A stretch of DNA of 64,000 bases from an uncultured Actinomycetes bacterium (GCA_963719305.1 CAVRBL010000011.1:388459-452458), one strand, 5' to 3'; shown: positions 9,169-32,460, counted from the first letter of the stretch. A program made the numbers and translations. The notes: generated from the sequence alone by a model not told the origin.

Positions 9169-9176
9169 TCAAATAT
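9163..9176. promoter_or_regulatory. Regulon motif copy 2 (perfect palindrome ATTTGATCAAAT)
   Basis: Just upstream of the RidA ATG at 9191. Confidence 0.55.
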
Positions 9177-14688: not shown

Positions 14689-14711
14689 GGGTGATCGATC
14701 CTTCCCGATCA

Positions 14712-14726
14712 TGTATCAAATGTCAA
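14712..14726. promoter_or_regulatory. Regulon motif copy 3
   Basis: TGTATCAAATGTCAA in the 40 bp gap between divergent hyuB and the flavoprotein gene. Confidence 0.7.
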
Positions 14727-14728
14727 TC

Positions 14729-16396
14729 ATGGCGACTGAATATGACGCGATCGTGGTCGGCGGCGGGCACCAGGCGCTCGTCAGCGCGGCGTACTTGGCC
14801 CGCGCGGGCTGGAGCGTCCTGGTGCTCGAACGGGGAGAGCGTCCGGGGGGAGCGGTGCAGAGCGCCGAGATCACCCGGCCGGGATTCGTGCACGACCTGT
14901 TCGCGACCAACATGAACCTGTTCCTCGGCTCGCCGGTGGCGGCCGAGCTCGGGGCTGACCTGGAGCGGCATGGCCTTCGGTATGCCACCTGCGAGCAGCC
15001 GTTCGCAAACGTCTATCCCGAGGGACTGGCGCTGCGCGTCCGTCGGGGCGTGGCCGACACGCTCTCGGAGCTGGGGGGCCACGACCCTCGCGACGCCGAC
15101 GGCTGGCGCGAGCTCGATGCCCTCTACGAGCGCCTTAGTCCCGCGCTGTTCGCGCTATACGGCTCCCGGCTGGACAGCCGTAGCCTGCTCGCGCTGGCCG
15201 TCGGGCAACTTCCGGCGCTGGGTGCGGACGGGGCCTGGGAGCTGGCGCGGCTGTTGGTCTCGTCCACGCGCGAGCTCGCGGAGACGTATCTGCACTCGCC
15301 CGAGGCACACGCCCTGCTGGGCTGTTGGGGGCTGCACCTGGACTTCGGTCCCGATGTGGCCGGCGGTGCGATGTTCCCCTTCCTGGAAGCGTTCACGGAC
15401 ATGCGCACCGGGATCGCGATTGCCCAGGGTGGCGCGTCGGAGCTGATCAAGGCCCTTGCGGCGGTCGCGGCCGAGCACGGCGCCGAGCTTCGAACCAAGT
15501 CGGAGGTCACGCGGGTAACGGTCAATCAAGGCCGGGCCGACGGGGTGGAGCTTGCCTCCGGTGAGCGGATCGGGGCCCGACGGGTTGTGATCGCCGGCGT
15601 CACGCCGCAGGCACTCTACGAGCGGCTGCTGGCCGGCGTTCCGCTTCCCGACGGGTTGCGGCGTGCCGCTCGCCGCTACCGCTATGGCCCCGGCACGTTG
15701 ATGGTTCACCTCGCGCTGTCCGCGCCGCCCCTGTGGCGAGCCGGCGAGGATCTCAACAAGTTCGCCTACATCCACATAGCGCCCTATCTCGACGACCTCG
15801 CCACCACCTATTCGCAGGCATGCGCCGGAGTGCTGCCCGCAGAGCCGATGCTGATCGTGGGCCAGACCTCGGCCGTGGACCCTTCGCGTGCTCCCGTGGG
15901 GGGCGCGGCTCTGTGGGTGCAGGTGCGGGCGCTGCCCGCGCAGATCCGAGGCGATGCAGCGGGGGAGATCGCGGCCGGGACGTGGGACGAGGTGCGGGAC
16001 CGATACGCCGATCGGGTGCTCGCGAAGCTCGAGCGCTACGCGCCGGGGATCGGTGATCTTCTCCTGGACAGAGCGGTGCTCTCCCCGGCTGACCTCGAGC
16101 AGCAAGACCCGAACCTGGTCGGTGGGGACTCGATCACGGGCAGCATGCACCTGCGCCAGAACTTCCTGTTTCGGCAGGTGCCGCCGCTGCGCGACTACGA
16201 GACCGGGGTCGACGGGCTGCTGATGGTGGGGGCGGCGACCTGGCCAGGCGCCGGCGTCAACGCCATCTCCGGTTACAACGTCGCGCGGAAATTGTTGGCG
16301 CCGCCACCCCGGCGCGCAGAGGACGCCAGGCTCGTGCTCAGTGCGGTGCGCGCAGCAGTCGGGCCACTCTTGCGATCCGCCCGTCGCCGGCGATGA
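14729..16396 (+). CDS. Phytoene desaturase-like (COG1233/PYROXD2-type) FAD oxidoreductase
   Basis: YDAIVVGGGH, LERGERPGGAV, PGFVHD, SPADLE..PNLVGGD, GAATWPGAGV. Confidence 0.88.
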   Translation: MATEYDAIVVGGGHQALVSAAYLARAGWSVLVLERGERPGGAVQSAEITRPGFVHDLFATNMNLFLGSPVAAELGADLERHGLRYATCEQPFANVYPEGLALRVRRGVADTLSELGGHDPRDADGWRELDALYERLSPALFALYGSRLDSRSLLALAVGQLPALGADGAWELARLLVSSTRELAETYLHSPEAHALLGCWGLHLDFGPDVAGGAMFPFLEAFTDMRTGIAIAQGGASELIKALAAVAAEHGAELRTKSEVTRVTVNQGRADGVELASGERIGARRVVIAGVTPQALYERLLAGVPLPDGLRRAARRYRYGPGTLMVHLALSAPPLWRAGEDLNKFAYIHIAPYLDDLATTYSQACAGVLPAEPMLIVGQTSAVDPSRAPVGGAALWVQVRALPAQIRGDAAGEIAAGTWDEVRDRYADRVLAKLERYAPGIGDLLLDRAVLSPADLEQQDPNLVGGDSITGSMHLRQNFLFRQVPPLRDYETGVDGLLMVGAATWPGAGVNAISGYNVARKLLAPPPRRAEDARLVLSAVRAAVGPLLRSARRRR

Positions 16397-17960
16397 GCCG
16401 CAGCGCGACGATCCGGCCGGATGCCGCGTTCAGCCCCGGCCCCGGGTATGTGGAAGCGCCGCACTGGTACAGGTGCTCGACCGGGGTCGAGTGGGCGCCG
16501 TAAGCGGGCAGCGGCCGCCAGAGATATGACTGGCCAAGCTCGCAGTCACCCGCATAAATGTCGCCCCGGACCAGGTTCGGATTGCGGCGCTCGAGCTCCA
16601 CCGGCGATAGCGTGACCGCGCTGCCGCGCGCCTGCGGCCAGTTCTCTACGTGGGGCTCCAGCGCGGCCAGCACTCGGTCGCTGAAGGCCGCCACCAGCTC
16701 CTCGCTCCAGCTGCCATCGCCGGTATCGATCTCGCCCCCGGCGTCTCCGCGGGGGGCATACGGCACCTGCTGGAGCTGGATCCACATGATCGCGGCGCCA
16801 TTCGGCGCCCTGCTCGGATCGACCACGGTGGGCTGCCCGACGACGATGGTTGGCTTGGCCGGCAGCAGACCGGCGGCGGCCTGTGCGCAGGCCAGCGAGA
16901 CGCTGCCGAGACCATCGCTCAGATGGACCAGCGGTACGGCATCGAGGCGAGAATCGCGCCAGCGCAAGCGCTCCTTGAGCGCGACGTGGATCTGCGTTCC
17001 GGCCCGGGGGGAGTAGCGAAACCGGGTTCCCTCAGCGGCCGCCTCCTTCGGGACGGCGCCCGATGGGAGCAGGCGTCCATAGAGCTGGGTGGGCGTCGTG
17101 TTCGCGATCACCGCCCGGCGGGCCTGGATCTCCTCGCCGCCAGCCACGACGCCCGTTGCGGTACGTCCGCGGGTGAGGATCCGCTCCACCTCGATCCCGG
17201 TCCTGATCCGCCCACCGTGGTCTTCGATCAGCCGCCCGAACGCCCGCACGAAGTTCTGGGCGCCTCCGCGGACCACGGGAAGCCCCACGGCATGCAGGGA
17301 CCCCGCGATCGCCAGCACCTGAAAGCCACTACCGGCGCTATCAGGCGCGAGGCCCGTGTGCAAGGCCCACGGCGCATACAGGTCGGCGACCTCGCGGCCC
17401 TGAAAGCGGGTCTCGAACCAGCCGCGCGCGGAGGAGACGACATCCGAGGCGAAACTCAGGCTGCGTCGGCGCCCAAGCGAACGCCCCAGCCTCCAGGCGA
17501 GCTTGGCGGCACTGCCGGAGTAGAGCTCGGTGCCCAGCAGCGTCCCTACTGTCTCGATCGTCGCGCCGAAGCGGTCCATCTCGGCCCGGTACGCGGAGCG
17601 GTCAGCTGGATCGAATTCCTGGGCCGTGCGGGCGGCGTCCCGATAGGCGACGGTCGCGGTCCCACCGGGCAGCACGTTCGCCGTCGTCTCGGCGGGGGTC
17701 TCGCAATACTCGAGCCCCCGCGACTCGAGCTCCGGGCCGAGCTCCGCATAGGCAGCGGAGAGCTTGAACAGCGGATGCCAGGCGGAGAAGGTGTCGTGCA
17801 CGAATCCGGGCTCGGTCAGCTCCTCGCTTGCTACCGCTCCGCCCGCCGCTGGGTTGCGCTCTAACACCTCGACGCTCAGCCCAGCGCGCGCGAGATACGC
17901 CGCGGCGACAAGCCCGTTGTGGCCGGAGCCGATCACGACCACATCGCAGACCTCAGCCAT
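16338..17960 (-). CDS. Phytoene desaturase-like (COG1233) FAD oxidoreductase, second paralog
   Basis: DVVVIGSGHNGL, PGFVHD, SPVELERRNPNLVRGD, GASTYPGPG. Confidence 0.88.
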   Translation of the reverse strand: MAEVCDVVVIGSGHNGLVAAAYLARAGLSVEVLERNPAAGGAVASEELTEPGFVHDTFSAWHPLFKLSAAYAELGPELESRGLEYCETPAETTANVLPGGTATVAYRDAARTAQEFDPADRSAYRAEMDRFGATIETVGTLLGTELYSGSAAKLAWRLGRSLGRRRSLSFASDVVSSARGWFETRFQGREVADLYAPWALHTGLAPDSAGSGFQVLAIAGSLHAVGLPVVRGGAQNFVRAFGRLIEDHGGRIRTGIEVERILTRGRTATGVVAGGEEIQARRAVIANTTPTQLYGRLLPSGAVPKEAAAEGTRFRYSPRAGTQIHVALKERLRWRDSRLDAVPLVHLSDGLGSVSLACAQAAAGLLPAKPTIVVGQPTVVDPSRAPNGAAIMWIQLQQVPYAPRGDAGGEIDTGDGSWSEELVAAFSDRVLAALEPHVENWPQARGSAVTLSPVELERRNPNLVRGDIYAGDCELGQSYLWRPLPAYGAHSTPVEHLYQCGASTYPGPGLNAASGRIVALRLIAGDGRIARVARLLRAPH

Positions 17961-18005: not shown

Positions 18006-18021
18006 TTTGATCAAATGTCAA
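18006..18021. promoter_or_regulatory. Regulon motif copy 4 (consensus TTTGATCAAATGTCAA)
   Basis: Upstream of the 17960 start; contains TTGACA on the minus strand. Confidence 0.7.
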
Positions 18022-18083: not shown

Positions 18084-19280
18084 TCAAGCCAGCCGCAGCT
18101 GGCGCGGAATCGCGGCGATCGCCGCAAGCGACAGCGCCGCCAATGCCGCGAAACCGATCCGGCCCTCGCCAGGCAGGCTGAACGTCAGCCCCACCAGCGG
18201 CGCGCCGCAGACGATCACCAGGATCGGATAGATGTTCATCGCGCCCACGGCCGCGCCCGCGGCATGCGGGTAGATCCGGGTCGCGCCAACGAGGGTGGCG
18301 CCGAACGGGATGCCCGCAGCCAGACCGGCGAGCGCTGCCCCTGCGACGTCAACCACCCCGCTCAATGAAAGCGCTAGCAGCGCTGTTCCCAGCGCGACAG
18401 CCGCGAAGCTGAACGCGACCGCGCGCCAGACGGCATGAGGCAGCGAACGGGCGAGGATCCCTCCGGCCGGCCTTCCGGCGATGGCAAGGATCAGGAGCAG
18501 CGAACCAATCGCGCCGGCGGTCCCTCGCGAGAGGCCTTCCGTGCGTTCAAGCAGCGTCACCACCCAGTTGCCGAGGATCACGCTGAAGCCAAAGGAGACC
18601 GAGGACATCGCGCCCAACTGCGCGAGCGTGCGATCGGCCAGCAGCGCACGCATCGGCGGCGTCCCGCCGACCGTGGTGCGTCCCGGCGTTGCCGGACAGA
18701 CCGCCACAAATGGGATTGACACCGCCGAGACCACGGCGGCGCTGGCGTACGGTGCCCGCCAGCCGAATGCCCCCACCAGCTGGGGCACGACCGCCAGCGC
18801 GAGCCCGCCGCCGCCCAGCGCGGCACCGCCGTAGATGCCGCCGGCGAGCGCCGCGCCGCGGCCGGCCTCGAACTGCACATAGATCGCTCCGGCAAGGAAT
18901 CCCACTCCCACCCCGAGTCCGGTGAGCCCCCGCAGCGTCAGCGCCAGCAGCGGCGAGGCGGTGGTGAGCAGGAGCAGGTTGCCGACCAGCGAGACGAGCA
19001 GCGTGACGAGCCCCACGCGCTTCGCCCCGTAGCGGTCGATCGCCCGACCGCCGGGGATCATCACCGCCAGCTCGGCGAAGAACAGCACCGTCGTCAGGAG
19101 TCCGATGACCGCGAGGCTGGTCCCGTAGTGGTGCGCCAGCAGCGTCGCCACCGGTCCCGTGTTCGCGATGTTCCAGGAGATCGCCAGGCCGACGACGCTG
19201 CCGCCGATCAGCGAGCCGAGCCCGGACCGCCTCCAGCGGCGCGGCACCCGCTCAACCGGGCTGGTGCCACGAATGCTCAA
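18084..19280 (-). CDS. MFS transporter
   Basis: ~12 hydrophobic segments; motif A GRAIDRYGAKR; FGWRAPY. Confidence 0.88.
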   Translation of the reverse strand: MSIRGTSPVERVPRRWRRSGLGSLIGGSVVGLAISWNIANTGPVATLLAHHYGTSLAVIGLLTTVLFFAELAVMIPGGRAIDRYGAKRVGLVTLLVSLVGNLLLLTTASPLLALTLRGLTGLGVGVGFLAGAIYVQFEAGRGAALAGGIYGGAALGGGGLALAVVPQLVGAFGWRAPYASAAVVSAVSIPFVAVCPATPGRTTVGGTPPMRALLADRTLAQLGAMSSVSFGFSVILGNWVVTLLERTEGLSRGTAGAIGSLLLILAIAGRPAGGILARSLPHAVWRAVAFSFAAVALGTALLALSLSGVVDVAGAALAGLAAGIPFGATLVGATRIYPHAAGAAVGAMNIYPILVIVCGAPLVGLTFSLPGEGRIGFAALAALSLAAIAAIPRQLRLA

Positions 19281-20172
19281 GCCCCTCGATCAAGGCCGCG
19301 ATCGCTTCGTTGAGCGGCGTTGGGACCCCCTGCTCGGAACCGAACCGGACGATCCCGCCGTTGAGGGCGTCGACCTCCGTGGCGCGCTCGGCCAGCACGT
19401 CCTGAAGCATGCTCGCCCGGTGCTCGTAAGCGACCTTGGCGGCATGATCGACCAGTTCGTCGGGATCGGAGTCGAGAGTGATCCCCAGCGAGTCCGCAAC
19501 CGCCTTGCCCTCGTTCACCAGGGCGGTGATCAGGCGTCGGGTTTCGGGAAGCTCGCACAGGCGCCCGTGCGTCAATCGTGTCAGCGCGCCCAGGGGATTG
19601 GTGGCGGCGTTGAAGATCAACTTGGTCCACTGTGCGCCGCGGGCGTCCTCTAGAGCCTTGGTGTTCATCCCTCCCGCGGTGATCGCCTCCGCCAGCCGGC
19701 GGACCTCGTCCATGCTCGCCGGCCGGGACTCGAACGGGCCCAGCCACGTGTCGCCGCGGGTATCCATGTGAACCACCCCGGGCTCCACGACGTGCCCAGC
19801 CGGGAAGGTGGTGCCCCTGATCACCCGCTCCACGTGCTCGGCGATCGTCTCCTCGTTGCCGACGCCGTTCTGGACGGAGGCGACGGCGCCGTCGGCGAAC
19901 GCACGGGCGGCCTGCTCGATCGCGTCGCGGGTGAACATGCTCTTGGTCGCGGTGATCCCGAACTCGCAGGCCGGCAGCTGCGTGGGATCGGTGGTGGCCC
20001 GAACCCGGCCAGTCAGCTCCGCCTCGCCGGTCAGGCGCAGCCCGTTGCGGTTGATCGCCTCGACGTGGGGCTCCACAACGTCGTAGGCCCACACCTCCAC
20101 GTCCTCGACCTGCGCCAGATGGGCGGCGAACAGGCTTCCGACCGCGCCGCAACCGATGACGGCGACCCTCAC
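19252..20172 (-). CDS. panE: Ketopantoate reductase family (2-dehydropantoate 2-reductase-like)
   Basis: VAVIGCGAVG, QNGVG, WTKLIFNAATNP, SMLQDVLAERATEVDALNG. Confidence 0.85.
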   Translation of the reverse strand: MRVAVIGCGAVGSLFAAHLAQVEDVEVWAYDVVEPHVEAINRNGLRLTGEAELTGRVRATTDPTQLPACEFGITATKSMFTRDAIEQAARAFADGAVASVQNGVGNEETIAEHVERVIRGTTFPAGHVVEPGVVHMDTRGDTWLGPFESRPASMDEVRRLAEAITAGGMNTKALEDARGAQWTKLIFNAATNPLGALTRLTHGRLCELPETRRLITALVNEGKAVADSLGITLDSDPDELVDHAAKVAYEHRASMLQDVLAERATEVDALNGGIVRFGSEQGVPTPLNEAIAALIEGLEHSWHQPG

Positions 20173-21182
20173 GACCGCACCTCCGCAACCTGCGTGCGGC
20201 CCAGCCCCCAGGAGGCCTCCTTGCCCTTGATCAGCCGCTGGACCGCGGCGGTGAGCGGAACCTCAACTCCTCGCCTCGCGGCCTCGCGGACGACCGCCCC
20301 AGCGATGAACTCGACCTCGGTCCGACGCCGCGCGAGCACGTCCTCGAGCATCGAAGGGAGATGGGCGTAGTCGCTGCGGTTGGTCTCTCCGCGTGCGACC
20401 GCCAGCAGGTTCATCTCCCAAGGGTCCTCGTGCAGATCGATCTCGCTCGCAGCGGCGACCGCCTTGCCCTCGTCGATCAGCGCACGAACGACCGGGCCGA
20501 GCGCGCCCTCGTCGGCGAACAGCGCGACGTGGGGCAGCTCGGTCAGGGCCGAGACGCCGTTGATCGCCGAGTTGAAGATCAGCTTCGACCACTGCGCGGG
20601 CAACAGGTCCGCGAACGTCTCGGCCCGCAGCCCGGAGGCCTTCAACCGCTCGGCGACCTGCTCGACCGTCGCCATCGAGGTCTGGGTTTGGGCCCACGGC
20701 CCGAGCCAGGTCGCGGTGTCCAGCTCGTACTCGACGTGGGTGTCGGCGTGGCGGGTACCGCTCATGAACGTGACCGAAGAGATCAACGGCCAGCTCCCGT
20801 GGCGGGCGAGCACCTCCTCTGCGCCCAGGCCGTTCTGGATCGTCATCATCGTCGCCTGGGGCGCGAGCCCTTCGAGTCGCGCCGCCACTGACTCCAGGTC
20901 GGTGGCCTTGGTGGCGACGATTCCGAGGTCGAAGTCGGGCAAGCTCGCTCGGGTCACTCGTGGCCCGCAGGCGCGCCACACGGTCGCTTTTGCCGGAGAT
21001 CCGCAGTCCGTCCAGGTTCAGCTGCTCGGCGTGCTCGGCGCGGCGGGTCAGGACCCACACATCGCTCACACGGTCGCGAGATGGCCCGCGAGCAGGCTGC
21101 CGATCGTCCCGCCGCCGATCACGCAGACGCGATCGAGCGCCGGTGCGGCCACCCGGGTCCGCCGGGAAGGTTCAGCGGGCAT
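20169..21182 (-). CDS. panE: Ketopantoate reductase family, second paralog (frameshifts ~21066 and ~20940)
   Basis: VCVIGGGTIG, QNGLG, WSKLIFNSAING, SMLEDVLARRRTEVE. Confidence 0.8.
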
Positions 21183-22354
21183 CGACCAGCGTACGGAACT
21201 CCTCGTCTGAGACGAGGCCGTGCTTGCGGGCGCCCAGTGCCTTGACCTTCGCCAGCAGTTCGGGCCAGTCCTCCTCCGCGCGCTCGAGTCCCAGCTCGGC
21301 GAGCTTGATCCGGATCGAGTCAAGCCCGCTCTTCTTGCCCAGCACGACCCGGCGCGGCGCGCCTACGAGCTCGGAGGAATAGGGCTCGATTGCGGGAGGG
21401 TCGTGGAACTGGCTGGCGACCGCGCCGCTCTCGCGGGTGAACAGCGTCTCTCCGATCAGCGGCTTCCATGGCTCGAGCTCATAGCCGGAGAGGTCTTCGA
21501 TCAGCTGCGAGACCTGGCGCAAGCGGTCGAAGCGGAGGTTCGTAGAAATGCCGTACAGCCCCTCCAGCGCCAGGGCCACTTCACCCAAGCTGGCGTTCCC
21601 CGCACGTTCGCCCATGCCATTGATCGTCCCCTGAACCCAGCGCGCGCCTGCCCGCACCGCTGCGATCGCGGCGGCGGTGGCCAAGCCGAAGTCGTTGTGG
21701 CCGTGCCAGTGGACCGGGGATGTCATTGCCCACCCACCGGAGAGCCTTGCTCACCAGGAATGCCGCGGCCTCGGGATTGACGGCGCCCAGCGTGTCGACG
21801 ATCGCGATTTCCTGGGCTCCAGCCCCCACTGCCTCCTTGTAGACGCGCTCCAGGAACGCGAGGTCGGCTCGTGAGCCGTCGACGCCGAAGTAACAGACGG
21901 TGACGCCGTTGCTCGCGGCGTGCGATACCGCGTTCACGACCCGCCGCACGAGCTCTTCGCGGGAGATCCCATACGCGGCCAGCTTCCCGTCGGAAACCGG
22001 CGACTCGATCACCGCCGCCCGCACGCCGATCTCCAGCAGCGCGTCGACGTCGGCGGGCACTGCCCGCGCGAAACCCCAGATCTCGGCTTGAAGACCGGCG
22101 GCGACGATAGCCCGGAAGGCCTCCGTGTCGTCTTTGGATACCCGGGGGAACCCGGCCTCGATCCGTTCGATTCCAAGCGAGTCGATTGCCCGGGCGATCT
22201 CGAGCTTCTGCTCAGGGTCGAGCGCGACGCCGACGGTCTGCTCGCCGTCGCGAAGCGTCGTGTCGTAGAGCCCGATGCGTTGTGGCGCGTGATCGCCGTC
22301 GTCGAGCGCGTTGCGGTTGAGCTCACCAGTCCAGATGTGTTCCTTGGGGATCAT
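21172..22354 (-). CDS. LeuA/homocitrate-synthase-like DRE-TIM acyltransferase lacking a regulatory domain (frameshift ~21725)
   Basis: YDTTLRDGEQT, IEAGFP, DTLG, HGHNDFG, GMGERAGNA, GKKSG. Confidence 0.85.
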
Positions 22355-23538
22355 CGGCCTCCGCGGGTTCGAAAGTCGTCGGGGTAGCTTCCAAGCTGTT
22401 CGCAGCCGGTTGCGGTGATCAGGAAGTTGTCCTCCACGCGCAGCCCGCCGCCGTCGGGCCAATACAGGCCGGGCTCAATCGCGAGCACCATGCCTTCCAG
22501 TAGCTCGCCGCTCCCTGCCTGGTGGGCGTAGGGCGGCTCGTGCGCGCGGGCGCCGACGCCGTGCGCGATCGGGTGCGACGGCTGACCTGGGTAGCCAAGC
22601 TCGTCTATTCCGGCCCGAACCAGGCGATCGAGCTCGGCCAGACTCGCGCCCGGGCGCAGGTGGTCGATCGCGCGGCGATACACGCCTAGCAGGCCGTCGG
22701 TTAGCTCGTCGTACCGCGGCGTGAGCTCGCCGGGGCAGGCGTTCTTGGTCAGGTCGCTCCAGTAACCGTCCGCGCAGACCCAGATCTCGAGCAGCGTCGG
22801 CTCGTGCTCGCACACGCGCGTATCACTGGTGGCGGTGAATGTGCGGATACTGGGGCCCGACCACACGAGCGTGAACGCGCGCGCCAGCCGCACCTTGCCC
22901 TTGTAGCCGACGCCTTGCGAGTGCACGTGTCCCTCGAACAGCGCGCCGACTTCGCTGGTCTTCATTCCCGGCCGGATGTTCTCGCGAACGTACTCCATTG
23001 CGCTCGCCGCCAGCTCGGCCGCCAGCCGCATCCGCTCGATCTCCTGCTCGGTCTTGACCGCCCGGGCCTGGGCGAGCAGCGGCGAGACGTCTACCACCTC
23101 CTGACAGACGTCCGCGAACCGGTCGAACCACGGCATCGAGAACACCGTCGGCTCGGCGACCATCTGATCGGCCGCCTGGGTGCCCTGGGAGACCTCCAGG
23201 CCCACCCGGCCGGTGAGATCTCGCTCCGCCAGCAATCCTAGGCAGACGTCCTGGGCGCGGTACCACGGCGGCCGTGGGTCATCGGGGTGGTAGCCGTCGA
23301 ACGGTCGCACGTCGTCGGTCCAGCTGGTCTGATGCGCCTCCTCGAGCTGGGGCTCGAGCACGACCAGCACCGGCTCGCCGTGAGCGGGGAACACGAGGGC
23401 GTCGTAGCCTTTCATGCACCAGTAGCCGTCCAGGTACACGAGGTTGTCGGGCGCTCTGGCCACGATCGCGTCCAGCTCCAGCTCGGCCATAAGCGACCTG
23501 ACCCGGTCAAGCTTGTGCTGGTCGCGAGGCCAGCTCAT
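22351..23538 (-). CDS. M24 (Xaa-Pro peptidase/creatinase fold) hydrolase
   Basis: ARAVKTEQEI, GYWSDLTK, AHGVG, HEPP, AIEPG, RVEDN. Confidence 0.85.
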   Translation of the reverse strand: MSWPRDQHKLDRVRSLMAELELDAIVARAPDNLVYLDGYWCMKGYDALVFPAHGEPVLVVLEPQLEEAHQTSWTDDVRPFDGYHPDDPRPPWYRAQDVCLGLLAERDLTGRVGLEVSQGTQAADQMVAEPTVFSMPWFDRFADVCQEVVDVSPLLAQARAVKTEQEIERMRLAAELAASAMEYVRENIRPGMKTSEVGALFEGHVHSQGVGYKGKVRLARAFTLVWSGPSIRTFTATSDTRVCEHEPTLLEIWVCADGYWSDLTKNACPGELTPRYDELTDGLLGVYRRAIDHLRPGASLAELDRLVRAGIDELGYPGQPSHPIAHGVGARAHEPPYAHQAGSGELLEGMVLAIEPGLYWPDGGGLRVEDNFLITATGCEQLGSYPDDFRTRGGR

Positions 23539-23559
23539 CGTCGCACGGCCGGCCCACCT

Positions 23560-24459
23560 CTACCAGCGTTTCAACGGCGGCGCCGGCACTCCGTGTGCGT
23601 CCTCCCAGGAGACCACCGGGTTGCGCAGCACGCCGATTCCCTCGATCTCGCACTCGACCGTGTCGCCGGGTTGCAGGTACCACTTGTGCGCATCGGTGCG
23701 GAAGCCCGCAACGCCGGCAACGGTTCCGAGCGACAGGACGTCGCCCGGGCTGTAGTCGAGCGCCGAGTAGTGGGCAATGACCTGGGGGATCGTCTGCCAC
23801 ATGTTCCCCGACACCGACTGCTGGCGGAGCTCGCGGTTGACCCGCAGCTCCATTCGCAGCTTGTATGGATCCGGGATCTCATCCGGAGTCACGATCCAGG
23901 GCCCCAAGGGGCAGAACGTGTCGATCGCCTTGCAGAACGAGAACACGCCCGAGCGCATCTCGCGCCGCTGGATGTCGCGTGCCGTGATGTCGTTGAAGAT
24001 CAAGTAGCCGCCGATGTAATCGGCCGCCTCCTGCTCGCCGAAATGGCTGCCGGCGCGGTTGATCACCACCGCCAGCTCGAGCTCATAGTCGAGCTCGTTG
24101 GTCAAGTGAGAGGGGTACACGATCGGGTCCTCGGGGCCGATGATCGCGTCGATGTTCTGGAAGAACACGATCCACGGGGCGATCTCGTGCGACCAGTTGA
24201 CGTTCTTTGACTCCTCTTCGTGCTCCCGGTAGTTGCCCGAGGTGTGGAAGAACTTCTTCGGCACGATCGGAGCGCGCAGCCGCACGTCAGCCAGCGCCAG
24301 CCGCTCGCCGCTAGCGCTCCTCGCGACCGTCGCGGGGTCCTCGCCGGACTCGAACAGTCCCCGCATCGACTCGACCCCATCAATCGTGGTCACGTAGCCA
24401 TCCTGTAGCGCCCCGCAACGTGTGCGTCCGTCGGCATCGGTGAAGGTCGCGAGCTTCAC
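23560..24459 (-). CDS. Fumarylacetoacetate hydrolase family protein
   Basis: LDYELELAVVI, NDITARD, KAIDTFCPLGP, PGDVLSLGT, GIGVLRN. Confidence 0.9.
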   Translation of the reverse strand: MKLATFTDADGRTRCGALQDGYVTTIDGVESMRGLFESGEDPATVARSASGERLALADVRLRAPIVPKKFFHTSGNYREHEEESKNVNWSHEIAPWIVFFQNIDAIIGPEDPIVYPSHLTNELDYELELAVVINRAGSHFGEQEAADYIGGYLIFNDITARDIQRREMRSGVFSFCKAIDTFCPLGPWIVTPDEIPDPYKLRMELRVNRELRQQSVSGNMWQTIPQVIAHYSALDYSPGDVLSLGTVAGVAGFRTDAHKWYLQPGDTVECEIEGIGVLRNPVVSWEDAHGVPAPPLKRW

Positions 24460-25715
24460 GCCACGACCCCGCACACCTTGGCCGCCACCAGCGCGTAGAC
24501 CGTCGCGATCCTGACCAGTCCCTCGATGTCCAGGCTCTCGCCTTCCGCTCCCGGCAGTCCGCTTGAGGTGCCGTAGTTGACGGCCTCGATCCCATAGCGC
24601 GTGAGCGCCGAGGCGTCCGAGAACCAGTGCACCACGTCGCGCTCGGGCCGGCGGCCGAACACGCGCTCGTGGCCTGAGTCGATCGCCCTGATCAGCGGAT
24701 GGGCTTCGTCGATCTCGGCGCCGGGGGCGGTCACGAAGATCTCGTACTCGATCCCGAACTCAGGATGCTCGGCGCGGAGCTCGGCGACGAGCCGCGCCAG
24801 CTCTCGCTTGGCGTCTTGCATCGGCATCGTCGGCGGCACGCGCACGTCGAGGAACAGGTCGGTCCGGTTCGGGGTGCGGCTCACTCGCCAAGGATGCCCG
24901 CCCGCGATCGAACCGATGTTGACGACGCCCTGCTTGTCCCGGTAGGACGCACGCTGCTCCCACTCCGGGATCCAGGCGAGCACGCGGTCGATCACGGGCC
25001 GCATGCGCACGATCGAGTTTTGGTCCATACGCCCGGCCGAGAAGGCGGTATGAACGAACGGGCCGCGGGTAGAGATCCGCGCCCACATGGCGCCGTAGTG
25101 CCCGACCACGATCCGCTGCTCGGTGGGCTCGCCGAGGATGCACATGTCAGCGATGCCGCCGTGGGTGACGAGGTGGCGGCTGCCTGCCGCGTAGCCGCGA
25201 TACTCCCGCCCGCGAAACTCCTCGCCCCACTGGGTCTTCTCGATCTCGCCGACGACGCAGGCGAGCATCACATCCCCGTTCAGCCTGAGGCCGGCGTCGC
25301 GAATCGCCCTGACCGCCTCCAAGTAGCAGGCCAGCGCTCCCTTCATATTGGAGATCCCGAGGCCGTAGATCCGCCCGTCCTTGACCGCCGCCATCGGCTG
25401 GAAGCCCGGGATTCCGCGGAGATGGGGTTCACGACCGGAATAGGAGGTATCCATGTGGCCGTTGAACATCAGGGTTGGCCCGCCGCCGGCCCCCTCGAGC
25501 GTCCCGATCACGTTGGGCCGACCATCCTCGACTTCCTGCCAGGCCGTACGCAAGCCGGCGTCCTCGAGCGCCGCCCGCACCGTCTCGGCCATCGCCTGCT
25601 CCGAGCCAGTGGGACTGGGGATGTCGACGTACGCGCACGCGGTGTCGGTCAGCCGGCGCTCGTCGATCCGCGCGACCAGGCGCTCGCTCAGCTGGTCGGT
25701 GGCAGCGAGCGTCAT
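24456..25715 (-). CDS. M20/ArgE-DapE-like metallohydrolase (non-canonical ligands)
   Basis: PSPTGSE, RPNVIG, NGHMDT, GLGISNMKG, GEPT; own ATG overlapping the LLM stop. Confidence 0.8.
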   Translation of the reverse strand: MTLAATDQLSERLVARIDERRLTDTACAYVDIPSPTGSEQAMAETVRAALEDAGLRTAWQEVEDGRPNVIGTLEGAGGGPTLMFNGHMDTSYSGREPHLRGIPGFQPMAAVKDGRIYGLGISNMKGALACYLEAVRAIRDAGLRLNGDVMLACVVGEIEKTQWGEEFRGREYRGYAAGSRHLVTHGGIADMCILGEPTEQRIVVGHYGAMWARISTRGPFVHTAFSAGRMDQNSIVRMRPVIDRVLAWIPEWEQRASYRDKQGVVNIGSIAGGHPWRVSRTPNRTDLFLDVRVPPTMPMQDAKRELARLVAELRAEHPEFGIEYEIFVTAPGAEIDEAHPLIRAIDSGHERVFGRRPERDVVHWFSDASALTRYGIEAVNYGTSSGLPGAEGESLDIEGLVRIATVYALVAAKVCGVVA

Positions 25716-26789
25716 GCCGCGGTGCGTACCTGTTCGCGGAAGTGAGGGAGCACTTCCTGCGGCGAACAGCTCGATCTGCCGCTCCCGCTGATCGCCCCAA
25801 AGCTCGAGCATCACGTGCGTGCAGCCGGCGTCCCGGTACTCCTCGATCGCTTCGATGCAGTCGCTCGGCGTGCCCGCGATGGGCCGCGTCTTGTCGAGGA
25901 CTTCGTCGCTGACGGCGGCCGCCGCCGCAAGCCTCCCGCCGGCCTCCATCGCGTCGGCGATCGGCCGGATCTCTTCCTGGCTGAGCTCGGCCAGCTCGAG
26001 CAGCGTGTCGGCCGAGGCCTGAATGTTCTGAACCTTGTTGGCGAGATACATCCCGGCTATTTCCCGCGCCCCCTGCCGCCCCCTGTCCCGATCCTCGTCG
26101 ATCGACGCCACGACCGTGCAGCCGAGGTCGATCTGATCGGGATCGCGGCCGGTCTTGGCGGCGCCCTGGCGAAGGTTCTCGCGCGCGTAGCGGACGAACG
26201 CGGGCGTGGTGATGCTGGGCGTGAGCAGTCCGTCGGCCTCCTCGCCGGCGTACTGCTGCATCCGCGGTCCGGTTCCCGCCACGTAAATCGGAACGGTCCC
26301 GCGAGGCGTATCCGCGTCCGCCGACAACGGCGGGACGACCGCGGTGAACGCCTTGCCTTGGTAGGAGAATTCGCTCCCCTCGAGCACTCCCCGGACGATC
26401 CGGACCGCGTCGCGGGTTGGGTTCAGCGGCTTGACGGCCTCGGCGCCGATCTCCTTCATGAAGATCCGGCTTGCGCCGAAGCCGAGCCTGAAGCGTCCCG
26501 GCGCGAGCTCCTGGGTGACGCGCGCGTCCATCGCCACCTGAATCGGGTGCCGGGTGAAGGGCGAGATGATCCCCCAGCCGATCGTGAGCCGGTCGGTCTC
26601 GCGCGCGATCAGCGCCGACAGCACGGTCGAGCTGCGGGCCTCCATCTGGTGCTTGCGCCACCACGGGTACGCCTCGGCCAGCCAGATCGTGTCGAACCCG
26701 CGCCGGTCTAGCGCCCGCGCATGGGCGAGGATCTCTTCCAGCGGCTCCATCGTGAGCTGCATCACGCCAATGCGGAGTGGAAGAGGCAC
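25712..26789 (-). CDS. LLM-class flavin-dependent oxidoreductase (close paralog of 5877-6944; frameshift near its 3' end)
   Basis: WLAEAYPWWRKHQMEARSST, IGWGIISPFTRHP; alternate frame ends QEVLPHFREQVRTAA*. Confidence 0.85.
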
Positions 26790-26794: not shown

Positions 26795-26808
26795 ATATTT
26801 GATCAGAA
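26795..26808. promoter_or_regulatory. Regulon motif copy 5 (partial)
   Basis: ATATTTGATCAGAA in the 47 bp divergent intergenic gap. Confidence 0.5.
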
Positions 26809-26836: not shown

Positions 26837-28006
26837 ATGTCGATCGAGCTGACCGGCGAGGTCGAGCGCCGCTACCGGCTGATCAGGGAAGCCGCTGCCC
26901 GCGACGGTCTCGATGCGGTGCTCGTGTGCGCCAGCGAGTACACCGGGTTCGAGGGGGCGATGTTCTACGTGTCGGGGTTTCGCATCCTGCACCGCTACGC
27001 GTACGTGCTGCTGCCGCTGGACGAGCCCCCGACGAACATCTTCCCCGGCGAGGGGCGCTGGGTCGGCGACCACTCGGAGGGATGGGTCGAGGATCGGGTG
27101 TTCGCCGAGACCCCCGGCAAGTGGATCGCGCAGCGGATCCGCGAGCGCGGCTGGAGGATGGTCGGGGTCTACGGCCTGGACCTCGTGATGCCGGTCCGCG
27201 ACTACGTGGAGCTGCCGCCCGAGCGGATCGTGCGCTGGGACCAGGAATTCGATTACGCACGGGCGTGCAAATCAAAGGCGGAACTCGAGTCGGTGCGAGA
27301 GTCGGTAGCGATCAACGAAGCCGGCGTGCTCGCAGTGGCCGACGCGTGGGAGCCCGGCAAGCCCGAATCAGAACTGATGGCCGTGGCCGAGCAGACGTTC
27401 GTCAGCCGTGGCACGCGTCGGCTCACGATGGACATGGTCCTGACGGGCCCCGACGGCGCCGCCCTGCCGGAGATGCGGCTGCCCGACGAGAAGCGGCGGG
27501 TCGCCGCCGGCGACATGCTGATCTACGGGCTCGAGATCGCCGGCCCCGGCGGCCACTGGGTCGAGGTCTCGCGCCCGATCTGCGGCGGCGAGCCGTCGGC
27601 CGAGTCCAAGCGGATGATGGAGGCGTACCGCGAGTACCACGAGATCTGTGCCGCGGAAATGCATTCCGGAGCCTCGTCGCGGGATGTGCATCGAGCGGTC
27701 GCGCGGCCGTTCCTGGAGCGGGGCTGGAAGCTCGGTCACGTCACCGGCCACTCGATCGGGATGACGATGATCGAGCATCCCCGGATCGGCGACGCGTTCG
27801 ACGTCGAGCTGCGGGCGGACATGGTGTGCTCGATGCACCCGCACGTGATCTCCGAGGACGAACGCACATGCCTGTACTTCCAGGACACCTGGCACGTGCA
27901 GGGCGATCGAGCGGTGGCGCTCAGCCGGCTACCGGTCGACTTCCTGGATCCACGCGCGGCGCCGGCAATGGCGGCCGCACTAAATGAGGAGGCTGCATGG
28001 CAGTAG
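26837..28006 (+). CDS. M24 fold hydrolase, creatinase-like (metal ligands substituted)
   Basis: ARACKSKAEL, GHSIG..IEHP; SMHPH and FQDT replace the two Glu ligands. Confidence 0.8.
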   Translation: MSIELTGEVERRYRLIREAAARDGLDAVLVCASEYTGFEGAMFYVSGFRILHRYAYVLLPLDEPPTNIFPGEGRWVGDHSEGWVEDRVFAETPGKWIAQRIRERGWRMVGVYGLDLVMPVRDYVELPPERIVRWDQEFDYARACKSKAELESVRESVAINEAGVLAVADAWEPGKPESELMAVAEQTFVSRGTRRLTMDMVLTGPDGAALPEMRLPDEKRRVAAGDMLIYGLEIAGPGGHWVEVSRPICGGEPSAESKRMMEAYREYHEICAAEMHSGASSRDVHRAVARPFLERGWKLGHVTGHSIGMTMIEHPRIGDAFDVELRADMVCSMHPHVISEDERTCLYFQDTWHVQGDRAVALSRLPVDFLDPRAAPAMAAALNEEAAWQ

Positions 28007-29163
28007 AGCTGAAACAGGAGCTCGGAGCCCGGCGCGAGTCCGTCCCGTTCCGGGTCGTGGATGCCGACGGCAAAGTCACCGAGCTGACGTACTCATCGCC
28101 ACGGCCGGCGGCCGAGCACGACGAGCTCGCGGTGGTTGAGCAGCTGCCGTGGTTCGACCATGGCCAGCCGCTGCACAATTGGATGCTGCACGAGACCGAC
28201 TTCTACGACGAGGTCGAGCAGATCTGGGGCAAGCGATGGGGCGCGGAGGGAATCGGCCGGCTGCGCGAGGTACTCGTCTCGCGGCCGACTGAGAACGAAA
28301 CCCGCCCCGAGTACGCGGCCGAATGGCAGTACTACTACTCGACGGCGGCAGGAAATGCCGACCTCGGCCGCCTCCAGGCCCAATTCGACCAGTACTACGA
28401 GGTGCTCGCCGACAACGGCGTGCGCGTCAACTACGTCGAGCCGCCGGTGCCCGCGATCGGCGCGTACGGCTACCTGAAGAACCTGGTGACGCTGGCCGGT
28501 GGTGGCCTCGTTGTGAAAGGGGGGGCCATCATCCACCGGATGGGGCTCGGCTCCTGGCAGCGCGGGCGCGAGGTGATCTGGTCCAAGACGCTGAGCGCGC
28601 TGGGCGTCCCGATCTACCTCACGATCCACGGCGGCGGCATCGGCGAGCCCGGCGCCGGGCGCTGGCTTGACTCAAAGACGTTCGTGTTCAACGACAGCGT
28701 GGTCGCGAACGAGGAGGGCCTACGCCAGATCGAGTTCATCCTCGGCGGTCTGGGGATCGAGCTGGTCAGAACGCACACCCCAGGTTGGGTGGGAAGCACC
28801 GGCCACGGCAACCTCGGCACCACTCACGCCGACATGTTCCTGATGGTTCCCGATGTCGGTCTCGCAGTGCTCGCGCCGCACCTCGTGGACTACGCGTTTG
28901 TCCGCTACCTGAAACGCCGCGACATCAAGATCATCGAGGTGCCGGTCGAGGAATACTGGGACCTCGCGGTCAACGGGGTGACGCTAGAGCCCGGCAAGGT
29001 GATCTTGAACGCGGGCTCCCCTCAGACCCTCAAGGCGCTCGAGCGCGAGGGAATCGAGGTGATCCAGGTGGACTTCTCCGAGAGCCACAAGTTCGCGATC
29101 GCCGGACTGCATTGCGCGACCCTCGAGCTTGCCCGCGAGCAGCCGGGTCCGGCTCTGCCGTGA
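27997..29163 (+). CDS. Amidinotransferase/arginine deiminase (pentein) superfamily protein
   Basis: GRLREVLVSRP, RGRE, HADM, NGVTLEPGKV, C-terminal GLHCATLEL. Confidence 0.8.
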   Translation: MAVELKQELGARRESVPFRVVDADGKVTELTYSSPRPAAEHDELAVVEQLPWFDHGQPLHNWMLHETDFYDEVEQIWGKRWGAEGIGRLREVLVSRPTENETRPEYAAEWQYYYSTAAGNADLGRLQAQFDQYYEVLADNGVRVNYVEPPVPAIGAYGYLKNLVTLAGGGLVVKGGAIIHRMGLGSWQRGREVIWSKTLSALGVPIYLTIHGGGIGEPGAGRWLDSKTFVFNDSVVANEEGLRQIEFILGGLGIELVRTHTPGWVGSTGHGNLGTTHADMFLMVPDVGLAVLAPHLVDYAFVRYLKRRDIKIIEVPVEEYWDLAVNGVTLEPGKVILNAGSPQTLKALEREGIEVIQVDFSESHKFAIAGLHCATLELAREQPGPALP

Positions 29164-29936
29164 GCCGGCTCGGGCTCGGCGTGGATGACCTCGGCCAGGG
29201 CGAGCCGGCGCTGCTGCTGCTGACGGGTTGGTGCTCTTCTCGCACGCGCTGGGCGCTGACGGCGCCGTTGCTGGCGGCCAAGCGGCGAGTGATCAACTTC
29301 GAGTGGCGCGGGCACGGCGAGTCGACGCCCGCGAGCGAGGATTTCGGCACCGCCGAGATGGTGGAGGACGCCCTCGCCGTGATCGCGGCAACCGAGCCGC
29401 AAACCGTGATCCCGTGCTCGGCTTCTCATTCGGGCTGGGTCGCGATCGAACTGCGGCGCAGGTTGGGAGAGCGCGTGCCGAGGATCGTCCATCTCGACTG
29501 GATGGTGACCGAGCCGTCCGCTGCTTACATGAAGCTGCTCGGGGACCTGCAGTCCGAGCAGGGCTGGCCGGAAGCCCGCGACACACTGTTTGAGATCTGG
29601 CGCGCAGGCGACGAGAGTCCGGAGATCGGCGAGGCCGTCGACGTTATGAGCCGGCAGGACGCAGCAATGTGGATCCGGTCTGGCCGCGAGATCGAGGCTT
29701 CATACCACCGCCACGGGAGTCCCCTGAAGGCGCTCGAGAAGCTCGATCCACCCCCGAGAGTGCTGCACCTCTACGGGCAGCCACCGTCCGCCGATTATCT
29801 CGCCGCACAGGAGCAGTTCGCCGCCCAGCACGACTGGTTCGAAGTCAAGCGGCTGAACGCGCGCACGCACTTCTCGATGCTCGAGGCGCCGCACGATGTG
29901 GCTGCGGCGATCGAAGCCGCCGTGAGCCGTGCCTGA
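29160..29936 (+). CDS. HOD/QDO/AqdC-like cofactor-independent alpha/beta-hydrolase-fold dioxygenase
   Basis: LLLxGWC, WRGHG, SHSGW, DW, LFxxW, WxRSGRxIExxYxRxGSP, HxxxQP, QHxWF and THF are collinear with the HOD sequence as recalled. Confidence 0.8.
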   Translation: MSRLGLGVDDLGQGEPALLLLTGWCSSRTRWALTAPLLAAKRRVINFEWRGHGESTPASEDFGTAEMVEDALAVIAATEPQTVIPCSASHSGWVAIELRRRLGERVPRIVHLDWMVTEPSAAYMKLLGDLQSEQGWPEARDTLFEIWRAGDESPEIGEAVDVMSRQDAAMWIRSGREIEASYHRHGSPLKALEKLDPPPRVLHLYGQPPSADYLAAQEQFAAQHDWFEVKRLNARTHFSMLEAPHDVAAAIEAAVSRA

Positions 29937-30327
29937 CGACTCCGACAGGACACGGCGGGCACGGGGCATCGCGGCATACGCCAGCCAGTTCGGCATCCCC
30001 GAGGAGGAGGTCGAGGCGCACCTCACCTCGCTAGTCGGTCCGCGAATGGCCCGGGAAGCGATCATCGCCCAGGGTGGCGGCGCGTGGGAGGAAGGGGTGC
30101 TGTCGCTGCGCGATCGGAGCCTGATCGTGCTCGCAAGCCTGATCACCCTGGGTGGGGCAGAAGCTCGCCTCCGCGGTCACGTTCGGTGGGCGGTCGAGCA
30201 CGGGGTGACGCCGGCCCAGATCGAAGAGCTTGGGACGCTGCTGGCGATCTATGCCGGCTATGCGCGCGCCTCGACGGCGATGGAGACGATCCGCGAAGCG
30301 CTTGCTGCCATGGAGCAACCGCGGTGA
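29929..30327 (+). CDS. Carboxymuconolactone decarboxylase (CMD/AhpD) family protein
   Basis: LSLRDRSLI, LRGHVRWAVEHGVT, YAGYARA. Confidence 0.85.
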   Translation: MPDDSDRTRRARGIAAYASQFGIPEEEVEAHLTSLVGPRMAREAIIAQGGGAWEEGVLSLRDRSLIVLASLITLGGAEARLRGHVRWAVEHGVTPAQIEELGTLLAIYAGYARASTAMETIREALAAMEQPR

Positions 30328-31526
30328 AGGTGGCGATCGCAGGCGGCGGCGTGGGAGGTCTCACAGCAGCGATCGCACTCGCCCGCAAGGGCATCGAGGC
30401 AGAGGTCTATGAGCAGGCGCCGGCGATCAACGCGATTGGTGCATCGCTTCAACTCGGGCCAAATGCACTGCGCTTGATGGATGAACTTGGGCTGCTGCCC
30501 GCGCTGCGCCGCATCGGCGTGCTTCCGGATGCGGTGGACTTGATTCGCTGGGACGACGGCTCGCTGCTCCTGCATACTCCGATGGGGCCGGAGATGCAGG
30601 ACTACTTTGGCGCGCCGCAACTGGACTTCTTCCGGCCCGACCTCCATCACCTGCTCGCCGACTCCCTGGCTCCGGGGATGCTCCGGTTCGGTGCTCGGGT
30701 CGTCGGGGTGGGCCAGCGGACCGACGGGGTGACGCTATCCCTGGCCGATGGCACCAGCGTCGAGGCGGACGTCGTCATCGCCGCGGATGGAATCCGCTCG
30801 CCGATCCGCCAGCAGCTCTTCGGAGCCGAGGACCCGATCTTCTCCGGGACTGTCGTCTACCGCGGCGTAGCGCCGCGCGAGCGGGTGATCGATCTCCATC
30901 CCGAGCACATCAACTACTACTGGCTCGGTCCCTACCGTCACGGCGTCTCCTACTGGATCTCCGCCGGTGCCCTACTGGCCGTCAACTGCGCCGTACAGCA
31001 TGCCGAGTGGGCCCAGGAGTCGTGGGCCCTAGAGGCTTCAGTCCAGGAAGCACTGCCCTACTTCGAGGGCTGGCACCAGCCGCTGCTCGAGCGGATCCGG
31101 GCCTGCGACATCTTTCTGCGCGGTGCGGTGTTCGTGCGCCAACCCCTCGAGCACTGGGCAGCGGGGCGCGTGGCGCTGCTTGGCGATGCCGCTCACGCGA
31201 TGGAGCCTTTCCAAGCGCAGGGGGCCGCACAGGCGGTCGAGGACGCGTTCGTGTTGGCCGAATGCTTGGCGGCCGCCGGCGACGATCCCGTTTCGGGGCT
31301 CTCCCGCTACGAGCTGATCCGCCGCAAGCGCGCCGAGGAGCTGCAGACCTCCTCGGCCGCCGCCGCCAACGTCTTCTACCTGCCCGACGGCGAGGAGCAG
31401 CGTGACCGGGACGCGGCCTACGGGACGCTGCGCGAGACCCAGCCCTACGGGCCGCGCCAGCGGATCTGGGAATACGACGTCCGGGCGGCGCTTTCGGGCT
31501 CTACGCCGAAGCTGCCCACAACTTGA
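30324..31526 (+). CDS. Group A FAD-dependent monooxygenase (salicylate hydroxylase/NicC-like)
   Basis: IAGGGVGG, ADGIRS, LLGDAAHAMEPFQAQGAAQAVED. Confidence 0.9.
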   Translation: MKVAIAGGGVGGLTAAIALARKGIEAEVYEQAPAINAIGASLQLGPNALRLMDELGLLPALRRIGVLPDAVDLIRWDDGSLLLHTPMGPEMQDYFGAPQLDFFRPDLHHLLADSLAPGMLRFGARVVGVGQRTDGVTLSLADGTSVEADVVIAADGIRSPIRQQLFGAEDPIFSGTVVYRGVAPRERVIDLHPEHINYYWLGPYRHGVSYWISAGALLAVNCAVQHAEWAQESWALEASVQEALPYFEGWHQPLLERIRACDIFLRGAVFVRQPLEHWAAGRVALLGDAAHAMEPFQAQGAAQAVEDAFVLAECLAAAGDDPVSGLSRYELIRRKRAEELQTSSAAAANVFYLPDGEEQRDRDAAYGTLRETQPYGPRQRIWEYDVRAALSGSTPKLPTT

Positions 31527-31541
31527 GGAGGCCGATCGACC

Positions 31542-32455
31542 ATGACCGACCAACCGCCCGCCCCAGTAGTCGCCAGTGCGCCTGAAGAAATCGCCGACGG
31601 CGTCTACGTCATACCGGACCGAGGCGTGCCCCTTGTCCCGAACGTCGGGATCGTGGTCGGCTCGCGGGCCACGCTCGTGGTCGACACCGGCATGGGGCCT
31701 GGCAACGGGGCAAACCGTCCGCAGCCACGCAGAGCAGCTCTCCACAGGGCGCCCGCTGTTTCTGACGATTACACACTTCCACCCGGAGCACGGCTACGGC
31801 GCGCAGGCGTTCGCCGACGGTGCGACGGTGCTGTACAACCGCGGGCAGCTCGAGGAGCTGCGCGCAAAGGGACAGCCATACCTCGAGATGTTCAGGACGT
31901 TCGGCGACTCCGTCGCCGAGCAGCTCGAGGGCGTGTCACTGGTCGAACCGCACCTCACCTACGACGGCGCCGCCGAGCTGATCGTCGGCGGCTCAAGCTG
32001 CGCAAATGCGGACCTGGGGGTTGGCACATACCGGCGCCGACCAGATCGTGTTCCTCCCCGAGCAGCGGATTCTGTTCACCGGCGACCTCGTCGAGAACCG
32101 GTGCTTTGCGATCTTCCCCTGGTTCCCACCGGATGACACCGATGTCGACGGCGACCGCTGGATCGCCGTGCTCGAGCAGCTCGAGCGGCTCGAGCCGGCG
32201 ACCGTCGTGCCGGGGCACGGCGAGGTTGGCGACGCGGGGGTGATCGCGACGGCGCGCGAATACCTGGAGCTGCTCCGCGCCGAGACGCGCCGGCTGGCGG
32301 ACGAGGGCGCCTCGGAGGAGGAGGTCGCAACCCAGCTCGACGAATCGATGCGGGCCCTGCACCAGGATTGGGCCCAGCCCGAGTGGATCGCCTCCGGCGC
32401 CCGCTACTTCTATGCGGCGTACGGGCACGAGCGCGGGGCAGGGGGAAGGCCATAA
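31542..32455 (+). CDS. Metallo-beta-lactamase fold hydrolase (frameshifts ~31710 and ~31995)
   Basis: NVGIVVG..LVVDTG, THFHPEH, AHTGAD, FTGDLV, VPGHG. Confidence 0.82.
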
Positions 32456-32460
32456 CCGGC

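Follow-up and report, generated by a model that had tools for sequence, protein, structure and literature searches.

What would a LeuA-type synthase gene and two ketopantoate reductase genes do inside an operon of hydrolases? The question is raised by a minus-strand block at positions 18084–26789 of a 64,000-nucleotide stretch of DNA from an uncultured Actinomycetes bacterium (GCA_963719305.1 CAVRBL010000011.1:388459-452458), hereafter the window, whose coordinates are used throughout. The block is very probably the core of a GntR-controlled catabolic island. The overall reading that is somewhat favored here is the GntR-controlled catabolism of an imported nitrogen compound by way of a D-2-hydroxy/2-oxoacid, which the LeuA-like protein, a DRE-TIM metalloenzyme, would cleave independently of coenzyme A (CoA).

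The initial annotation read the genes in the order LLM, M20, FAH, M24, DRE-TIM synthase, two PanE-like reductases and an MFS transporter, which the open reading frame listing and the Pfam and NCBIfam profile scans used for all gene identities bear out. It further concluded that the operon serves neither leucine nor pantothenate synthesis, leuBCD and panBC being absent from it. Both gene sets were located elsewhere in the genome, which encodes a 538-residue leuA frame with the regulatory domain, cimA, leuB, leuC, two genes resembling 3-hydroxy-3-methylglutaryl-CoA (HMG-CoA) lyase, panB, panC and a third, divergent panE-like gene. The operon copies are not the only leuA and panE relatives of the genome, and a role in leucine or pantothenate synthesis was rejected.

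The His-less DRE-TIM protein

The LeuA-like gene (21172–22354, minus strand) encodes a metalloenzyme of ~393 residues on the LeuA/homocitrate-synthase scaffold. Residues were counted over 195 family members and aligned to 6E1J, 6KTQ and six reference synthases. In methylthioalkylmalate (MAM) synthase the key catalytic residue, His388, is stacked on Tyr399, which bonds to Glu227, and activity is lost in the mutants H388A/D/E/Q, Y399S and E227A (PMC11532901). In the 6E1J alignment, His388 falls within an ESGIH motif that reads ESGAVA (RESGAVASQF-type) in the family; His is found at this site in 0/195 members, and all six reference synthases keep it. The Tyr399 site is occupied by Ile or Val in 194/195 members and the β5 Glu227 site by Val in 195/195. 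Positions 124, 127, 307 and 341, conserved in His-bearing relatives, are lost together in the family, and a new residue on β4, Glu117, is invariant. The metal/2-oxoacid site is kept, with Arg35, Asp36, Gln39, Thr188 and His219 in all 195 members and His217 in 194. The protein had been described as a Claisen-condensing acetyl-CoA enzyme. Because the His-Tyr-Glu set for enolization is missing in every one of the 195 members, acetyl-CoA condensation is probably the wrong premise and, on this residue pattern, Claisen synthase activity is improbable for the LeuA-type protein.

The fold belongs to the Claisen-condensation subgroup of the DRE-TIM superfamily (LeuA, CimA, homocitrate synthase/NifV and MAM synthase; 6KTQ, 6E1J, 3RMJ). 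The family shares with this subgroup the TIM barrel and helical subdomain, the RDGxQ and HxH metal site, the DT motif and a synthase-like homodimer model, with 32–33% identity to 6KTQ and 6E1J. It differs in the lost catalytic His, stacking Tyr and β5 Glu, the invariant β4 Glu, the lack of a regulatory domain and the catabolic context. Homocitrate, MAM and isopropylmalate synthases are its nearest relatives in both sequence and fold, and the fold and Atlas searches return only the synthase family. The homodimer model scores 0.87 and its best control 0.00, on a mark reached by 20/30 solved pairs and 1/23 single chains; the runs agree in at least 96% of contacts with a predicted local distance difference test (pLDDT) score of at least 90. 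The modeled interface residues (38–46, 123–127, 189–194, 311–312 and 320–325) are those expected of a synthase-like swapped dimer, and the model probably passes by its likeness to solved dimers. In the monomer model, pLDDT is below 50 across residues 294–343.

This kinship, the homodimer score and the retention of Gln39, Arg35 and several basic residues all favor an enzyme that is still an acetyl-CoA Claisen synthase with another base (His317 or Glu117) and makes a 2-substituted malate, within a catabolic route or for export. Such an enzyme is nonetheless unlikely, and distinctly so, given the loss of MAM synthase activity in the His388 and Tyr399 mutants and the His kept by the six references. 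The protein also scores below every NCBIfam synthase cut-off (best 339 vs 517; TIGR02090, 324 vs 485; NifV, 300 vs 463). Neighboring genes point the same way. A GTDB genome scan with family patterns returned at least 553 stretches with relatives, and neighbors were counted by reference tblastn (at least 40% identity) in the closest 80 of the 553, 42 of which have full 10-kb flanks. The MFS gene recurs in only 4/80 loci, and no conserved isomerase or β-decarboxylating dehydrogenase that could serve a malate product was seen.

The chemistry of HMG-CoA lyase requires the Arg/Asp/metal site and not the synthase His-Tyr-Glu set. A related acyl-CoA retro-Claisen lyase would therefore fit the altered active site as well as the retained basic residues and Gln39, yet it is improbable. 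Neither a CoA ligase (2/80 loci) nor a CoA transferase is conserved, and the recurring partners make or use free 2-oxoacids. The protein lacks the GCP motif and lies on the tree outside the clade of the genome's two HMG-CoA-lyase-like proteins. The DRE-TIM aldolases (DmpG/BphI/HsaF) and HMG-CoA lyase, at about 20% identity to the family, exemplify the metal-bound enolate chemistry for catabolic C–C cleavage that is proposed as the working model. The DmpG/BphI aldolase profile reaches 76 bits against a cut-off of 286, acylating aldehyde dehydrogenase is not among the recurring neighbors, and the family has Gln where DmpG-type aldolases have His.

A profile search of 1.8 billion representatives was followed by a quick tree. 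This tree, which contains few reference enzymes, assigns the family to a His-less clade of 61 rows (SH-aLRT 98) that branches from within the synthases. With tree rows grouped by the presence of the catalytic His, the β4 Glu occurs in 44/66 His-less rows versus 0/51 His-bearing rows. Among the latter, the genome's own LeuA (L001:766-2382) carries Met (FSPMD) at the conserved β5 Glu, as do several other His-bearing representatives.

The PanE pair

PanE-A (20169–21182, minus strand; 47/80 loci) and PanE-B (19252–20172, minus strand; intact; 40/80 loci) are ApbA-family dehydrogenases that form separate orthologue groups, with 63% and 66% identity within the groups and 39% between them. Both PanE-B (224) and the PanE-A fragment (172) exceed the TIGR00745 cut-off of 141. 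Residues were counted over 73 sequences, 41 PanE-A and 32 PanE-B. The catalytic/carboxylate set is kept in both, with K72, N98, K176, N180, N184 and S244 in 73/73 and E256 in 72/73. The two groups carry opposite cofactor signatures: PanE-A has Arg31 in 41/41 sequences, an NADP-type signature, and PanE-B has an aromatic residue followed by Asp at the end of β2 in 32/32. Reading the latter as NAD-type follows established Rossmann-fold rules.

In E. coli PanE, N194 and N241 bind the 4-hydroxyl of ketopantoate (PMC10127515). Both are replaced by His in 41/41 PanE-A and 32/32 PanE-B sequences, which suggests that neither enzyme uses ketopantoate and that their substrate bears a polar or anionic group near C4. 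The His/His pockets and the additional enzymes likewise argue against pantothenate as the substrate of the island. PanE-fold enzymes acting on other 2-oxoacids are known (bioRxiv 10.1101/2024.01.05.573888). They are D-2-hydroxyacid dehydrogenases that include the 'PanE' proteins of L. lactis and Enterococcus and P. aeruginosa KPR2, and some members are NAD-dependent. The island enzymes differ from these: they form a conserved pair, share His194/His241, carry opposite cofactor signatures and belong to a catabolic island.

Paralogues that are 39% identical, with the same pocket and opposite cofactor signatures, would also suit a redox-neutral stereo-inversion, in which PanE-B would oxidize with NAD+, the DRE-TIM protein would only enolize the 3-substituted 2-oxoacid as a C3 epimerase or tautomerase, and PanE-A would then reduce with NADPH. 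A LarA-type racemase adjoins a distant His-less member, which also agrees with this scheme. However, the distant modules have one dehydrogenase only and ABC genes often separate PanE-A and PanE-B from the DRE-TIM gene, and stereo-inversion is regarded as the least probable of the functions considered for the DRE-TIM protein.

The third panE-like gene of the genome (L009:760-1875) lacks N180, N184, N194 and N241. The genome may thus have no canonical ketopantoate reductase, for which IlvC could substitute.

Extent, conservation and control of the island

The description of the operon as mostly translationally coupled proved accurate, with four 4-nucleotide overlaps, one 11-nucleotide overlap and gaps of 4 and 21 nucleotides. 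The eight genes between 18084 and 26789 are real, but the system stretches well past those limits. Upstream of the DRE-TIM gene, all on the minus strand, lie the LLM oxidoreductase (25712–26789; 61/80 loci), an M20 amidohydrolase of the ArgE/DapE type (24456–25715; 62/80), an FAH-family hydrolase/decarboxylase (23560–24459; 68/80) and M24a, of the creatinase/prolidase fold (22351–23538; 75/80), in which the first metal ligand is changed from Asp to Glu and the remaining ligands are kept. The LLM protein is Mer-like and putatively F420-dependent; its best matches are Mer profiles at scores below the cut-off. The genome carries a CofG/FbiC match and a PF01933 hit. The MFS gene at the other end (18084–19247, minus strand; 4/80) is accessory and outside the conserved core.

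The block forms the center of a larger island, whose limits in the numbering of the window are about −6.3 kb and +28 kb. A Liv-type ABC importer (1046–5857, plus strand) comprises a binding protein (49/80 loci), two ATPases and two permeases and is orthologous to the importer of related islands. It is followed by a paralogue of the operon LLM (5796–6944, plus strand), 66% identical to the orthologue in locus L012. Genes for a second LLM, GntR, CoxMSL and CoxG sit just left of the window. A CrtI/CrtO-like FAD oxidoreductase (16338–17960, minus strand), with a homologue in 60/80 loci, and M24b, a second, divergent M24 protein with an altered metal site (26837–28006, plus strand; 29/80), flank the block.

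The block recurs in 80/80 top loci, the MFS gene in just 4 of them. Among the 42 full-flank loci, LLM, M20 and M24a are present in 42, FAH in 40, the CrtI-like gene in 35, the binding protein in 33, CoxL in 32, PanE-A in 29, GntR in 27, PanE-B in 25 and MFS in 1. The arrangement is not due to chance, since LLM, M20 and M24 accompany the DRE-TIM gene in 42/42 and FAH in 40/42 of these loci. Over all 80 loci, further neighbors are CoxL (43), an IolE-like TIM protein (39), CoxG (39), GntR (37) and the second LLM (26). The initial annotation had weighed synthesis and export of a small hydroxy acid against a lower pathway that would process a 2-oxoacid set free when a ring is opened. Export is unlikely because MFS occurs in only 4/80 loci, and an ABC importer, GntR and a molybdenum hydroxylase are conserved. 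Taken together, the importer, the regulator, the hydroxylase and the amide hydrolases speak for catabolism, and the ring-opening alternative agrees with the evidence.

The DRE-TIM family has more than 100 homologues at 70–93% identity, of which the nearest are labeled Solirubrobacteraceae or Solirubrobacterales, labels on which the probable placement of the host rests. The best 80 loci come from Gaiellaceae, Solirubrobacterales and Acidimicrobiia, and from a few bins labeled Acidobacteria or Proteobacteria that may be misbinned. The distribution is patchy: the island is present in 3/300 other genomes of the phylum and was not found in 40 sampled relatives. A plasmid search returned no close relative, the best match being about 40%.

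A 15-bp imperfect palindrome, TTGACAtnTGATCAA, lies upstream of GntR in 24/35 loci and is a candidate GntR operator. A candidate copy, TTGACATTTGATCAA, occurs upstream of the CrtI-like gene (18007–18021, minus strand), and this operator is repeated upstream of the ABC binding protein (973–987, plus strand). A half-site, TGATCAAAT, just upstream of the LLM start (26796–26807, minus strand) is conserved in loci L011, L012, L014, L020, L029, L033 and L039. With a matrix built only from sites in other genomes, the top five hits in 4.15 Mb all fell in or beside the island, preceding the binding protein, the second LLM, CoxM and the CrtI-like gene among others, and the window held five matches against 0.2 expected. 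The motif starts with a −35 consensus and part of the signal may be promoter; a scan for sigma-70 promoters and terminators found no match. Additional candidate copies, all on the minus strand, precede a hydantoinase-B-like gene (14712–14726) and a zinc alcohol dehydrogenase-like gene (35246–35260) or lie near an ABC sugar-type block (43841–43855), and the regulon may extend past the genes of the conserved core.

Several of these genes are interrupted in the assembly. An extra base near 25759 makes LLM and M20 read as one 789-residue open reading frame. A true LLM-M20 fusion was rejected, since the homologues stand as separate genes and deletion of that base restores an ATGA overlap. The DRE-TIM gene is split by an extra base near 21716, PanE-A carries two frameshifts, near 21070 and 20938, and the binding-protein and permease genes of the importer are split too. 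Four frameshifts within 8.7 kb and the split importer genes, in a genome whose rpoC and gyrA are intact, together with the absence of the island from the sampled relatives, raise the separate question of a decaying pseudo-operon with real frameshifts, which is considered unlikely. Compared with the intact locus L012, each of the four shifts amounts to a net gain of one or two bases, all fall in homopolymer or dinucleotide (GT repeat) runs, and no nonsense substitution was seen. The two halves of the DRE-TIM gene have ratios of nonsynonymous to synonymous substitution (dN/dS) of 0.155 and 0.059 against a 93%-identical intact homologue, values that denote purifying selection; leuC of this genome is likewise split, and the operators are intact. 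The four frameshifts are therefore probably assembly errors. A genome-wide frameshift detector was uninformative, its controls (26–45 per 100 kb) exceeding the genome (~18), and was not used.

A candidate route and related modules

The gene set, its conservation, the importer and regulator, the operator and the residue changes are observed, and the steps that would join them into a route are inferred. The Liv-type ABC system would take up the nitrogen compound, probably an N-heterocycle or cyclic amide. The molybdenum hydroxylase CoxMSL/G, the F420-type LLM and the CrtI-like flavoenzyme would activate the ring, and M24a, M24b and M20 would hydrolyze C–N bonds. The NAD-type PanE-B would then oxidize an open-chain D-2-hydroxy acid that carries a polar or anionic group close to C4 to the 2-oxoacid, and the NADP-type PanE-A would handle the same or a closely related 2-oxo/2-hydroxy pair. 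The His-less DRE-TIM protein would bind the 2-oxoacid on its metal and cut C3–C4 without CoA, by retro-aldol cleavage or β-decarboxylation; Glu117 would either protonate the enolate or bind the side chain. The FAH protein would finish or precede this cleavage.

Catabolism of N-heterocycles initiated by molybdenum hydroxylases (nicotinate, picolinate, oxidative pyrimidine and reductive urate pathways) has the same elements: hydroxylation, ring redox, amide hydrolysis, a final C–C cleavage, an importer and a regulator. No such pathway is known to combine a LeuA-like enzyme with PanE paralogues, M24 and M20. The riboflavin/lumichrome pathway (PMC12746152) follows the same general logic but does not match the island. 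Within the library searched, the literature yielded no characterized matching pathway and no characterized His-less member. New in the present analysis are the remodeled DRE-TIM clade, the two PanE proteins with His/His pockets, the exchanges of partner described below and the operator.

Distant members of the His-less clade frequently neighbor importers, GntR and either PanE or a D-2-hydroxyacid dehydrogenase. In an Anaerolineae sister family (47% identity), the gene adjoins an NCS2 permease, two aldehyde:ferredoxin oxidoreductases, M24, a D-2-hydroxyacid dehydrogenase and an isochorismatase. They are functional counterparts of the importer, Cox, M24, PanE and M20 of the island, and the permease points weakly to a pyrimidine-, purine- or pyridine-like compound. 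Among distant members, one adjoins creatininase, another a TAXI transporter and GntR, one M24, an amidohydrolase and a Liv importer, and another enolase-family enzymes and LLM; one context contains M29, LarA-like and IlvD-like genes. A 34%-identity subclade has the order GntR, DRE-TIM, PanE (L115) or D-2-hydroxyacid dehydrogenase (L117, L119, L122), then TRAP, and in L120 an aminotransferase follows. Most commonly, the partner shared by the His-less members is an enzyme converting between a hydroxy or amino acid and a free 2-oxoacid.

In L115 (913–8872, on a contig of 32% GC), GntR, the His-less DRE-TIM gene, PanE and TRAP are followed by a glycyl-radical enzyme, and a repeated element of ~60 bp lies between PanE and TRAP. 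The PanE of this locus keeps the canonical Asn pair. The module is a candidate for pantoate catabolism, in which the DRE-TIM protein could be a pantoate-degrading ketopantoate aldolase.

It can be suggested, tentatively and at slightly less than even confidence, that the broad His-less, β4-Glu clade arose from Claisen synthases as an unrecognized DRE-TIM class that cleaves free 2-oxoacids without CoA. Its partners would be interchangeable D-2-hydroxyacid dehydrogenases (of PanE or 2-Hacid fold) or aminotransferases, and in the present island it would end a new F420- and molybdenum-dependent nitrogen-compound pathway in abundant uncultured soil Thermoleophilia and Acidimicrobiia. Databases name the family proteins isopropylmalate, homocitrate or citramalate synthase, and hundreds of genes labeled isopropylmalate or homocitrate synthase may be mislabeled. 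If they are lyases, predictions of leucine, lysine and coenzyme B pathways are inflated in many uncultured lineages, and a few residues would account for a switch from synthase to lyase within the DRE-TIM superfamily. The island further provides a lead to the soil nutrition of Gaiellaceae and Solirubrobacterales and to their use of F420. Thanks to the His/His PanE pair, the operator and the small TRAP modules, a few purified proteins would suffice to test the problem.

Several observations weigh against cleavage without CoA and its extension to the clade. Basic residues conserved in synthases are kept (R97, R162, R250, K340 and K371), and the DRE-TIM protein may accordingly still bind CoA. The invariant His317, five residues beyond the lost His site, might substitute for it. 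Only the loss of the His is decisive by itself, because two synthases of the same genome also deviate elsewhere: Met occupies the Glu227 site in LeuA, and Phe the Tyr site in CimA. The coupling of His loss to the β4 Glu represents essentially one clade and not independent events, in a tree with few reference enzymes, and Gaiellaceae dominate the closest 80 of the 553 loci. One His-less member lies near aconitase-family genes and another has unrelated, non-catabolic neighbors.

Further genes accompany the family at some loci. A GDP-mannose-dehydratase-like gene is inserted between FAH and M24a (at ~7800–8800) in 13/80 loci (L023, L026, L027 and 10 other Gaiellaceae). A few loci are flanked by tryptophan-2,3-dioxygenase-like, styrene/indole-monooxygenase-like and class V aminotransferase genes (L034:3936-4655, L034:14260-15579, L048:4083-5669 and L059:37-1365), a weak hint at indole or tryptophan-derived substrates. 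A stand-alone family member, 55% identical, in another actinobacterium (genome G202; L110:18606-19832) adjoins a class V aminotransferase in the absence of the operon.

Within the window, the CrtI/CrtO-like gene converges with a paralogue (14711–16396, plus strand) that is 40% identical, and their 3′ ends overlap by ~59 nucleotides. M24b heads a divergent plus-strand operon (26837–34068) that continues with a pentein, an alpha/beta hydrolase, a CMD-like protein, an FAD monooxygenase, a metallo-beta-lactamase fold protein and a CoA ligase; only M24b belongs to the conserved island, the other genes occurring in 0–4 of the 80 loci. A perfect palindrome, TTTGATCAAA, is located at 9164–9173, just before a RidA-like gene.

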